From a bacterium (GTDB lineage: Bacteria > Patescibacteriota > Minisyncoccia > Minisyncoccales > CG1-02-41-26): a stretch of 64,000 nucleotides of DNA. This document shows, piece by piece, positions 21,800 through 23,827 of the stretch. The stretch's first letter is position 1; every line of letters begins with the position of its first letter. Made by a program: the position numbers and the translations under genes. The notes under the pieces were generated by a model, which saw only the letters and a list, made by a program, of their open reading frames with translations, was not told the DNA's origin and did not search any database. The stretch spans positions 885 through 64,884 of the forward strand of contig JAUVXX010000005.1 of NCBI GenBank assembly GCA_030603395.1. The letters are read 5' to 3'.

Positions 21800-23827
21800 A
21801 TGAATAAGCAACAAGCTCAAGAGAGAATCAAGAAACTAAAAAAGGTGATTAATTATCACCGTTATTTATATCACGTGCTCCAGAAACAGGAGATTTCAGA
21901 GGGAGCTTTGGATTCTTTGAAACACGAACTCTATCAACTGGAGCAACAATTTCCAGAACTTATCACTCTCGACTCTCCCACTCAAAGGGTAGCCGGGAAA
22001 CCCCTGAAAGGATTTAAAAAAGTAAAACGCAAATTGCCCATGCTTTCCCTTGAGGATGTCTTCGGGCAAAAGGAACTTGAAGCTTGGCAGGACTATTTAA
22101 AACGGCTCATCCCCGGTCAAAAATTTGATTATTTCAGTGAAATGAAAATAGATGGTTTTGCCATCTCCCTGATTTATCAAAATGGAGTTTTCTGGCAGGG
22201 TTCAACCAGAGGCGATAGCATTACTGGAGAGGATGTCACCCAGAACTTAAAAACCATAGAAAGTATTCCCTTAAAATTGGAGATACACGGTAAACTTCCT
22301 TCAAAAGAGATTGAAAGAAATTTAAAAAGAGAAATTGACCCCGTTAGAAATACGATTTCTAACGGGGTTGAAATTCGGGGAGAGGTCTATATGGAAAAGA
22401 AAGATTTTGAAAAATTCAAGTCAACTTATGCCAATCCCCGCAATCTGGCCGCAGGTTCCATTAGACAACTTAACCCCAGATTAGCCGCCTCCCGCCCCTT
22501 AAAATTTTTAGCTTATGCTCTTATTACTGATTTAGGACAGACCCGCCATTCTCAAGAGCATCAGGTTCTGTCCCAACTGGGTTTCAAAGCAGACCCTGGG
22601 AAAGTTTGTAAAGATTTAAATGAAGTTATTGATTTCTGGAGGGATATTACCAAAAAAAGGGAAAGATTACCTTTCCAGATTGACGGGATAGTCATAAACG
22701 TAGACGACAACTCGCTTTTCCAAAAATTGGGCACGGTTGGCAAAAGTCCTCGGGGAGCTCGTGCCTTTAAATTTTCTCCAGCTCAAGCAACCACCTTTGT
22801 CCAGGACATAAAAATTCAGATTGGCAGGACTGGAGCTCTGACTCCCGTAGCCCATTTAAAACCAGTTGAGGTGGGAGGGGTAACCATTACCAGAGCCACC
22901 CTGCACAACGAAGATGAAATAAAAAGATTGGGGGTTAAAATTGGCGATACGGTGATTGTAGATAGAGCAGGGGATGTGATTCCGGAAGTGGTCAAAGTTA
23001 TGAAAGATTTAAGAACTGGACAGGAAAAGGAATTTAAAATGCCCAAAACCTGTCCTGTTTGTGACTCAAAACTCCTTAAACCAGCTAAGGAGGCAATTTG
23101 GAGGTGTCCTAATCCAAAATGCCAGGCCAAACAGAAACGCTATTTCTATCATTTCATCAGTAGGGGTGTATTTGATATCAAGGGAGTAGGTCCAAGAATT
23201 ATTGACCAACTAATCGCAGAGAATTTAATTACTGACCCAGCAGACCTTTTTGAGTTAAAAGAAGGAGATTTAATTCCCTTGGAGAGATTTGCTGAAAAAT
23301 CAGCCGAGAATTTAATCAAAGCTATCCAGCAGAGAAAAGAAATCACCTTAGCCAGATTTATCTATGCTTTAGGGACAAGAAACGTAGGAGTAGAAACCGC
23401 CCAGGATTTAGCCGAACATTTCAAGAATTTAGAAAATTTGAAAAAAGCAACCATAGAGGAGTTACTAAGTATAAAAGATATCGGACCAGGAATCGCAGAT
23501 TCAATTCACTCTTTTTTCCGCGAGAAGAGAAATCTCAATTTTATCGACCGTCTCCTCAAAACAGGCATCAAAATTCAAACCCCAAAGTTTCAAGTTTCAA
23601 GTTTCAAGTTTCAGGGCCAAACCTTCGTCTTAACCGGCAGCTTGAAAACCTTAAGCAGGGCAAGAGCTAAAGAAAAAATCAGAAATTTAGGAGGAGATAC
23701 TTCGGAGTCAGTTTCTAAAGAAACCGACTATTTGATAGTTGGAGAAAGTCCTGGTTCAAAATTAAACAAAGCTAAAAAATTGGGAATAAAAATCATTGAC
23801 GAGAAAGAATTTCTTCAACTTTTATGA
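21800..23827 (+). CDS. ligA: NAD-dependent DNA ligase LigA
   Basis: 675-aa ORF; KIDG adenylation lysine context, RGEVYM motif III, Zn finger CPVCDS...CPNPKC, HhH, BRCT (FVLTGSL). Confidence 0.92.
22331..22375. repeat. 33-nt palindromic insert flanked by 6-nt direct repeats (gaaatt) inside ligA
   Basis: perfect 14-bp stem, 3-nt loop at 22338-22368; gaaatt at 22331-22336 and 22370-22375. Confidence 0.85.
23586..23613. repeat. 4 x 7-nt tandem repeat (agtttca) inside ligA linker
   Basis: direct reading; encodes [10 protein letters not shown]. Confidence 0.9.

Follow-up and report, generated by a model that had tools for sequence, protein, structure and literature searches.

We find that ligA, the gene for the NAD-dependent DNA ligase LigA in the 64-kb window (the whole stretch of DNA analysed here, 64,000 nucleotides of contig JAUVXX010000005.1), almost certainly contains an inserted copy of a mobile palindrome family, bounded by a 4-bp duplication of its target. 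Elements of this family insert at the site R|YNNR|Y and duplicate the 4 bp at its centre, and their arms are the same in copies from many genomes and phyla; elements of ~280–320 bp with the same inverted-repeat families, often with 4-bp duplications, enclose a single gene of ~85 aa for a GIY-YIG nuclease. Our explanation as a whole, to which we give a probability of about 70%, is that the palindrome is a minimal, non-autonomous hairpin element, that the GIY-YIG elements would be its parents, and that a nuclease of this kind would mobilise it in trans.

The insertion consists of a 29-nt core, CCCCGTTAGAAAT-ACG-ATTTCTAACGGGG (22339–22367), and a 4-nt duplication, TTGA, which immediately adjoins the core on both sides; together they make 33 nt, or 11 codons. 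A sequence-only reading of this DNA had proposed a miniature transposable element with terminal inverted repeats (TIRs) and a target duplication, in frame before motif III of the ligase, and the copies, duplication, empty site, polymorphism and nesting described below bear this out. Its palindrome, a perfect 14-bp stem with a 3-nt loop (accccgttagaaat-acg-atttctaacggggt, 22338–22368) inside the ligA open reading frame (ORF), is exact. The dimensions of the insertion have to be revised: the hexamer gaaatt does occur at 22331–22336 and 22370–22375, but the duplication is TTGA, 4 nt rather than 6 nt, and the insert is 33 nt (11 aa) rather than 39 nt (13 codons). We reject the 6-nt duplication because the insertion split a pre-existing pair of Glu-Ile codons, GAAATTGAAATT (GAAATT GAAATT, Glu-Ile-Glu-Ile); the proviso that such codons alone might explain the hexamer was therefore correct for that repeat, without thereby refuting mobility.

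The ligA palindrome is well beyond chance: six perfect hairpins whose arms measure 14 bp or more are present in the window, compared with none in 60 dinucleotide-preserving simulated 64-kb windows, and the palindrome region folds as single-stranded DNA (ssDNA) with −14.9 kcal/mol (z = −5.9), a value reached by none of 200 shuffles. An Rfam search returned no match at the ligA site. The host protein itself aligns with E. coli LigA (2OWO) at E = 2e-78.

The palindrome is also not unique, as a search for copies in other genomes, suggested by the sequence-only reading, made clear. Scanning one genome per species for CCCCGTTAGAAAT-NNN-ATTTCTAACGGGG recovered the exact core in at least 119 loci labelled as at least six phyla; the records bearing it are labelled Omnitrophota (including the closed genome of Ca. 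Velamenicoccus archaeovorus), many Patescibacteria lineages, Planctomycetota, Nitrospirota, Actinomycetota and Desulfobacterota. Among the matches listed, several copies occur per metagenome-assembled genome (MAG; e.g. seven in JBDRHJ01 and four in JAHIHE01), and a perfect 4-nt repeat adjoins the 29-nt core in 63 of 118 distinct copies, with one mismatch in 24 more; controls in shifted registers gave 0–3 matches. The duplicated tetranucleotide is Y-N-N-R, with a pyrimidine at position 1 and a purine at position 4 in 100% of cases, and the flanks are mostly purine at −5 and mostly pyrimidine at +5, which together give the symmetric target. The loop triplet differs between genomes; within one MAG it is, among the matches listed, mostly the same triplet or its reverse complement, as expected for within-genome amplification from a local master copy. 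One viral contig carries the palindrome and none carries the sister family described below, and we conclude that the palindrome is not phage-borne. A literature search for the palindrome sequence returned only unrelated primer coincidences, and a search for the terminal repeat without its partner, as a 14-mer, gave chance matches only (loci L125–L204, set aside as noise; L and P numbers are our own handles).

Empty sites fix the limits of the insert. A ligA orthologue of 76% identity (L120) reads aaa aga gaa att gaa att cgg at this position, with a single TTGA; the insert is 33 nt (11 codons) long because this sequence equals that of the window minus 33 nt. The restored protein proposed beforehand differs from the one actually seen at this empty site, although the proposed comparison of orthologues did find what it sought, L120 and L380 being empty at the same position. 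Within one population, nine contigs are filled at the ligA site and one (L380) is empty; L380 and L381 share 96.9% identity over 3.2 kb, with the 33 nt of the insert as the sole sizeable indel inside ligA. The empty allele of L380 (2780–2800) reads gaa GTT gaa atc, with Val, where plain removal would leave gaa ATT gaa, with Ile; its G equals the last G of the palindrome. It may be the footprint of an excision displaced by one base, or simply a single-nucleotide polymorphism.

These comparisons bear on the view that the feature is not mobile at all, but the product of local template switching or snap-back synthesis, a conserved LigA loop, or an assembly artefact. Template switching can yield perfect palindromes, the window holds a single copy, and its exact allele is found in one record only. 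Nevertheless, the same 26 arm bases are found at no fewer than 119 unrelated loci, which come from many separate assemblies and a closed genome and have a 4-nt duplication of their own in each case; L120 and L380 present the exact empty site; and most of 120 LigA homologues are without the loop. The non-mobile view is thus effectively refuted; a template-switch product and an assembly artefact are both rejected on the copies, the duplications and the empty sites.

Inserts of several kinds are found at the same ligA site, occupying exactly this position in seven of the 120 LigA homologues, most others reading ...KGEIEIRGEV. L121 and L244 carry the same palindrome at the same TTGA, their loop CGT being the window's ACG in reverse complement; L122 has a sister palindrome, CCCCCACACCAAATTTGGTGTGGGGG; and L123 (P0005), as well as P0007, carries a third type, a 44-nt imperfect palindrome TCCGTTCGACAAGCTCAGGGTCAATCCTGAGTCATATCGAAGGA that encodes the peptide ...DPFDKLRVNPESYRR. 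All of these alternative inserts are flanked by TTGA, except for a TTGG left copy in L244. At another position, L120 contains a 68-nt element, CCCCGTTAGAAGC...GCTTCTAACGGGG, with a TACA duplication, and the matching site of the window (22284–22287, TACA in 'gag ata cac ggt') is unoccupied. The ligA of L121 (P0010; 3001–5121) has several inserts in one gene: the motif III palindrome; a C-terminal insert CCCCCCACCAAATCTTGGTGGGGGG (peptide PTPHQILVGG), whose arms resemble the repeats of a GIY-YIG element 700 nt upstream (CCCCCCACCAC...); and the extra peptides APHHFSQKSGEG and LPRRKPKAFLRG.

The sister palindrome, CCCCCACACCAAA-NNN-TTTGGTGTGGGGG, is present in metagenomes in at least 103 distinct copies and has the same target logo as the first family; among the matches listed, 56 of the 103 have perfect 4-nt duplications, 22 more are one mismatch off, and 58 of the 103 lie in open frames of at least 150 codons. 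Variants of the same design with other internal sequence have 4-nt duplications too, and longer forms of 49–194 nt have the same ends, CCCCGTTAGA...TCTAACGGGG, and duplications of their own; the 29-nt palindrome is the form reduced to a minimum, in which a 3-nt spacer is all that separates the two terminal repeats. Copies are also nested: in L061, L079, L110, L117 and L118 (Omnitrophota MAG JBDRHJ01 and relatives) the palindrome has entered a TTAG that lies within a related 76-nt element or within a CCCCGTTAGAGAGAATTCTCTCTAACGGGG palindrome. The family's own stem holds a preferred target.

Many copies lie inside genes. Among the matches listed, 62 of 119 palindromes are within open frames 150 or more codons long; 53 of these use the frame that gives P-V-R-N-x-I-S-N-G and nine the other open frame, the third frame holding TAG/TAA. 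Part of this bias arises because TAAA and TGAA targets would be stop codons in the other frame; TAAA-type duplications in ORFs are found in the first frame only (TAA is a stop in the second). All inserts seen in ligA are multiples of three (33, 30, 48 and 72 nt). The equivalent position in E. coli LigA is a loop ahead of the LEVRGEV strand. A structure model of the window's LigA, built from 120 sequences (mean predicted local distance difference test score (pLDDT) 87; it replaced an 18-sequence model that, at pLDDT 53.6, was too poor), places residues 180–189 in a coil between helix 169–179 and the motif III strand 190–198; block 181–190 has a mean pLDDT of 66, the lowest in the adenylation domain, compared with 89 and 95 for the neighbouring elements (95 for residues 191–200). 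The modelling of the loop proposed by the sequence-only reading thus yields a low-confidence coil between a confident helix and a confident strand. Of the 12 rare-insert blocks in the 120 homologues, nine fall between residues 163 and 190, and given this clustering and the modelled coil we consider the loop ahead of motif III a permissive site. Copies within genes survive only where their length (a multiple of three), frame (no stop) and position in the protein (a surface loop) are tolerated; the apparent hotspot in ligA reflects both target preference and the survival of tolerated insertions, and the effect on the ligase is probably neutral. The features of the ligA insertion, together with the other hairpins and the gene-bearing elements discussed below, are collected in Table 1.

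Table 1. Coordinates of the ligA insertion and of further hairpins in the window, and ends of GIY-YIG elements from other loci (duplication / repeat on the left, repeat / duplication on the right).
Feature	Position	Strand	Sequence or basis
Host gene ligA (NAD-dependent DNA ligase LigA, 675 aa)	21800..23827	+	ORF; homologues with LigA Pfam domains and names
Left target-site duplication copy, TTGA, 4 nt	22335..22338	.	Read in sequence; single TTGA at L120 empty site
Left 13-nt arm (TIR), CCCCGTTAGAAAT	22339..22351	.	Identical in at least 119 loci
Loop ACG, 3 nt	22352..22354	.	Sole orientation-giving part of the element
Right 13-nt arm, ATTTCTAACGGGG	22355..22367	.	Sequence and at least 119 loci
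Right target-site duplication copy, TTGA	22368..22371	.	Sequence, family-wide rule, L120 empty site
11 inserted codons, gac ccc gtt aga aat acg att tct aac ggg gtt (LigA residues 180–190)	22337..22369	+	Codon view
LigA motif III strand RGEVYM, intact	22376..22393	+	Alignment; preceding V-E-I regenerated by duplicated TTGA
Second palindrome of like design, CCCCGCACATAA-AGCG-TTATGTGCGGGG	17881..17908	.	Intergenic; flanks TTTA/TGTA (one mismatch)
Perfect 14–15-bp AAAA...TTTT-type hairpins, intergenic	9873–9903, 19028–19061, 40121–40150, 52213–52245		
GIY-YIG element L323			left caca / CCCCCACACCTGTTTTG; right CAAAACAGGTGTGGGGG / caca
GIY-YIG element L259			left tgaa / TCCCGTTAGAGAAA; right TTTCTCTAACGGGA / tgaa
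GIY-YIG element L002			left tatg / CCCCGTAGAGAAA; right TTCTATGGGG / tatg
GIY-YIG element L387			left tgaa / TCACGTTAGAGAAA; right TTTCTCTAACGTGA / tgaa
GIY-YIG element L398			left taaa / CCCCGTTAGAGAT; right ATCTCTAACGGGG / taaa

The gene-bearing relatives suggest a candidate enzyme. Lone arms of these repeat families adjoin the start codon of small ORFs, which encode single-domain GIY-YIG proteins of 84–94 aa (PF01541 only; E = 1e-16 to 1e-19). In the fetched DNA, inverted repeats bound all seven ORFs of the GIY-YIG subfamily (defined by a profile E ≤ 1e-30), compared with 13 of 400 size-matched control ORFs (3%) and none of five distant GIY-YIG ORFs. The gene-bearing units measure ~277–316 bp and have one GIY-YIG gene each; L099 shows a perfect TAAA duplication in addition to those listed in Table 1, and the repeat of L398, CCCCGTTAGAGAT, is one base apart from the arm of the ligA palindrome, CCCCGTTAGAAAT. 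Repeat and gene are closely joined: a clade of proteins ending ...RFLSLTG (76–100% identical) has CCCGTTAGAGA-type ends without exception, in each of three genomic contexts, and its right repeat encodes the last five residues L-S-L-T-G; in L259, L367, L387, L394 and L398 the ORF has no stop of its own, and the right flanking repeat supplies a TGA or TAA at its start.

The protein family is large, with 1,502 clusters at 50% identity (E ≤ 1e-10) and, in a separate search, at least about 8,000 clusters at 90% identity. Its closest relatives of solved structure are the uncharacterised UPF0213 proteins BH0048 (E = 1e-12) and EF2693, followed by SLX1 and I-TevI. Some family representatives are much longer (P0248, 237 aa; P0249, 600 aa), possibly through read-through or fusion with host genes. 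Tandem arrays occur in which a gene-bearing element is followed by a gene-less one, the intervening TAAA being common to both (L398, ~1455–1500; L099, ~4390–4460). A viral search with the GIY-YIG protein gave two weak matches, a tblastn search of plasmids for Ssn genes returned YazA-type proteins only (YazA being the nearest annotated), and the papers that we searched describe no GIY-YIG element of bacteria that has both inverted repeats and target duplications.

Chenal et al. (Nat Commun 2025, PMC11893778) recently described the Ssn family, single-domain GIY-YIG proteins of ~94 aa whose genes have hairpin repeats on either side, repeats that are scattered elsewhere in hundreds of copies; the Ssn nucleases bind ssDNA hairpins and cut upstream, in the variable flank, the loop being dispensable and long extensions tolerated. 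These authors remarked on the architecture, which resembles that of an insertion sequence (IS), and compared it with REP-associated tyrosine transposases (RAYTs) and their repetitive extragenic palindromic (REP) sequences; they reported no target duplication and no members from the Candidate Phyla Radiation (CPR), and gave 2% as the share of Neisseria repeats that lie in genes (PMC11893778). Our comparison with Ssn uses this published description, in which the hairpin repeats are NTS/dRS3 and the Ssn-related motifs (SRM), and its SRM consensus (PMC11893778).

By analogy with Ssn, we propose the following course of events: the two arms would pair in ssDNA; an Ssn-like nuclease would recognise the stem whatever its loop, be it 3 nt or a gene of ~250 nt; the nuclease would cut each strand within the variable flank, at an R^Y step 4 nt 5′ of the stem; and host polymerase and ligase would finish the insertion, creating the duplication. 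The junctions in these elements are all purine-pyrimidine steps. We lean towards the GIY-YIG nuclease as the putative mobilising enzyme. It is a more tentative proposal, which we hold at somewhat under even odds, that the TIR-GIY-YIG-TIR units (~280–320 bp) might themselves be autonomous transposons of an unrecognised class, in which an Ssn-like hydrolytic nuclease would act on the stem formed by the element's own ends and cut 4 nt outside it, the host joining the strands.

Several observations weigh against this explanation. No GIY-YIG element with an exact CCCCGTTAGAAAT arm was recovered, the nearest (L398) being one base off; the perfect duplication is absent in three of the first seven gene-bearing elements and also in L394, fetched later; tblastn found no GIY-YIG gene in the 64-kb window, so that any still-possible mobilisation of the ligA copy would depend on a gene elsewhere in the genome; and the ligA palindrome is the one certain copy in the window, where a search allowing up to three mismatches gave chance-level matches only. 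The GIY-YIG genes look single-copy and mostly vertically inherited rather than actively jumping: identical proteins found on many contigs (P0131, P0122) always have one context, and we rejected them as multiple genomic copies, one population having been sampled repeatedly. The phylum labels come from MAG bins, in which mis-binned contigs are possible. The SRM consensus, HGTCWYN(0-2)YYVSBRHN(0-5)WNVSBRGN(0-2)RNCYNB, matches 0 of 121 and 0 of 122 copies and does not match the ligA site, while the NTS positive controls match. Finally, GIY-YIG enzymes are hydrolytic and have, to our knowledge, no strand-transfer catalysis, which leaves joining at new sites unexplained.

The want of a known strand-transfer activity in GIY-YIG nucleases also speaks for another origin, in which the palindrome is a genuine miniature transposable element with inverted repeats (MITE) of very small size, moved by a classical DDE transposase with 4-bp staggered cuts (e.g. 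IS1380/piggyBac-like or IS5-like), and the GIY-YIG gene is cargo, or a second hitch-hiker in another non-autonomous derivative. TIRs with a fixed-length duplication at a symmetric target are a hallmark of DDE enzymes; however, 2.7 Mb of fetched DNA held no kb-sized element with matching ends and a duplication, only chance pairs of separate small copies, and clustering of the ORFs neighbouring the copies returned housekeeping genes and no recurring transposase, in loci that were not exhaustively scanned for classical transposases. Moreover, each repeat family pairs with its own GIY-YIG clade, and the repeat is coding sequence, which would be unexpected for random cargo; and related Ssn enzymes specifically recognise their own flanking hairpins (PMC11893778). 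We regard a DDE origin as unlikely.

It could also be argued that the palindromes were inserted as described here and are now kept for a host function, as hairpin signals for a domesticated nuclease that restricts or modulates incoming ssDNA in transformation (compare NTS and SsnA in Neisseria), or in a regulatory or terminator role. The arms are perfectly conserved across phyla while the loops drift; the GIY-YIG genes are seemingly single-copy and vertical within populations; there is the Neisseria precedent (PMC11893778); and the window has genes for a type IV pilus and for pilins of the sort typical of competent CPR bacteria. However, about half of the copies lie inside unrelated protein-coding genes, in any open frame, compared with 2% for NTS; the presence/absence polymorphism, the nesting and the decaying duplications resemble the dynamics of a parasite; and a role for the copy inside ligA is hard to picture. 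We therefore consider retention for a host function highly improbable.

Of the window's six perfect hairpins that have arms of 14 bp or more, only one other than the ligA palindrome lies within an ORF. This hairpin (12495–12527), CAATTTCTCATTTT-TTCTG-AAAATGAGAAATTG, is 33 nt long too and is located in ORF 12081–12623, which has no Pfam match; it is without CCCC ends and without a clear duplication (flanks GGAA/GAAA). The other four are intergenic and terminator-like; these AAAA...TTTT hairpins are most likely intrinsic terminators, separate from the CCCC...GGGG family. The palindrome of like design at 17881–17908 sits between a T2SSF (pilC-like) gene and a pilin gene, and could be an older, diverged member of the family or simply a terminator.

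If the palindrome is indeed mobilised in trans by a GIY-YIG nuclease, pairs of an Ssn-type nuclease and its hairpin would count as active mobile DNA whose insertion chemistry can be defined (the 4-bp duplication and R|YNNR|Y), and not only as domesticated regulators, and the question left open in 2025, whether NTS-ssnA-NTS is an insertion sequence, would become directly testable. With its 29 bp the element would mark, or come close to, the smallest size for transposable DNA, and its ~280-bp relative would do so for an autonomous element; should the TIR-GIY-YIG-TIR units prove autonomous, they would be the smallest autonomous mobile elements known, their stop codon lying within the duplicated target. 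The 29-bp derivatives of such units would then spread into coding sequences of CPR, Omnitrophota and other phyla, essential genes among them, and act quite generally as a source of small inserted peptides. In-frame insertions at recurrent permissive loops of essential genes such as ligA, in small CPR genomes, would be a measurable source of protein-length variation, strain polymorphism, and assembly and annotation noise; the encoded peptides PVRNxISNG and PHTKxFGVG could flag such insertions.

Classical MITEs (Correia, ERIC, QMITE1) are non-autonomous, usually 50–500 bp long, derived from DDE elements, and occasionally intragenic and in frame. The ligA palindrome has the TIRs (here two perfect 13-bp arms), the fixed-length duplication and the empty homologous site that are looked for in a MITE; it differs in size, its core of 29 bp lying below the range of ~50–500 bp, and in that its sole recognisable gene-bearing relatives, which share the MITE-like ends, encode a GIY-YIG nuclease and not a recognised transposase. 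Closer in size are the small dispersed repeats of cyanobacteria described by Elhai et al. in 2008, which are reportedly very small, at 21–27 nt; these repeats are not known to have an enzyme or a regular 4-bp duplication. The piggyBac elements have 13-bp ends, CCCTAGAAAGATA, and a 4-bp TTAA duplication, and members of the IS1380 family have CC ends and 4–5-bp duplications. The palindrome resembles them in its 13-bp repeats, which start with CCC and contain TAGAAA, and in its 4-bp T/A-rich duplication; it differs in that its target is not fixed to TTAA and that no DDE transposase was found in the 2.7 Mb of fetched loci, which were not exhaustively domain-scanned. The resemblance may be coincidental.

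REP/REPIN-RAYT systems are similar in having short dispersed hairpins, a cognate single-copy gene flanked by the repeats, and recognition of the single-stranded hairpin. However, RAYT (TnpA-REP) is an HUH/Y1 enzyme and not a GIY-YIG protein, and REPs have a conserved GTAG or CGTC, are extragenic and make no target duplication; we rejected a REP/RAYT element, as the flanks here are variable duplications and the associated gene is GIY-YIG. An IS200/IS605 derivative was likewise rejected, since IS200/IS605 elements make no duplication. The Rickettsia palindromic elements (RPEs) are palindromic selfish DNA of ~100–150 bp found in frame in unrelated, often essential genes (Ogata et al. 2000, 2002, via PMC10969869). 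They are alike in being in-frame palindromic DNA in protein-coding genes, with an added peptide that the fold tolerates, and differ in being larger (~100–150 bp vs. 29 bp here) and confined to Rickettsia, whereas the present element has a defined 4-bp duplication and occurs in several phyla. Rickettsia is among the SRM-rich genomes listed by Chenal et al. (PMC11893778), and a deeper link between RPEs and SRM is possible.

The closest described system is that of Ssn and SRM (Chenal 2025). Both have a GIY-YIG gene (~85–94 aa) bounded by hairpin-forming inverted repeats that are dispersed in many copies; in both, loop identity would be irrelevant and the cut would be expected a few nucleotides upstream of the stem, in the variable flank; and both families are widespread across phyla. 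They differ in that SRM has an oriented HGTCWY flank, whereas the repeats here are perfect, orientation-less palindromes; in that the gene lies here between the two arms of one stem, whereas complete hairpins flank it in Neisseria; in the 4-nt duplication, empty sites, polymorphism and nesting, documented here and unreported there; in the share of copies inside genes (~50% here vs. 2% for NTS); and in their hosts, which here are CPR, Omnitrophota and others, outside the coverage of the Chenal paper. The ligA palindrome is thus a genuine MITE in miniature, one of a set of MITE-like hairpin repeats tied to an Ssn-like GIY-YIG gene whose product would be the enzyme, and its undescribed features are the minimal size of 29 bp, the defined duplication and target, the polymorphism, the frequent in-frame occupation of genes, including an essential one, and the spread over multiple phyla.

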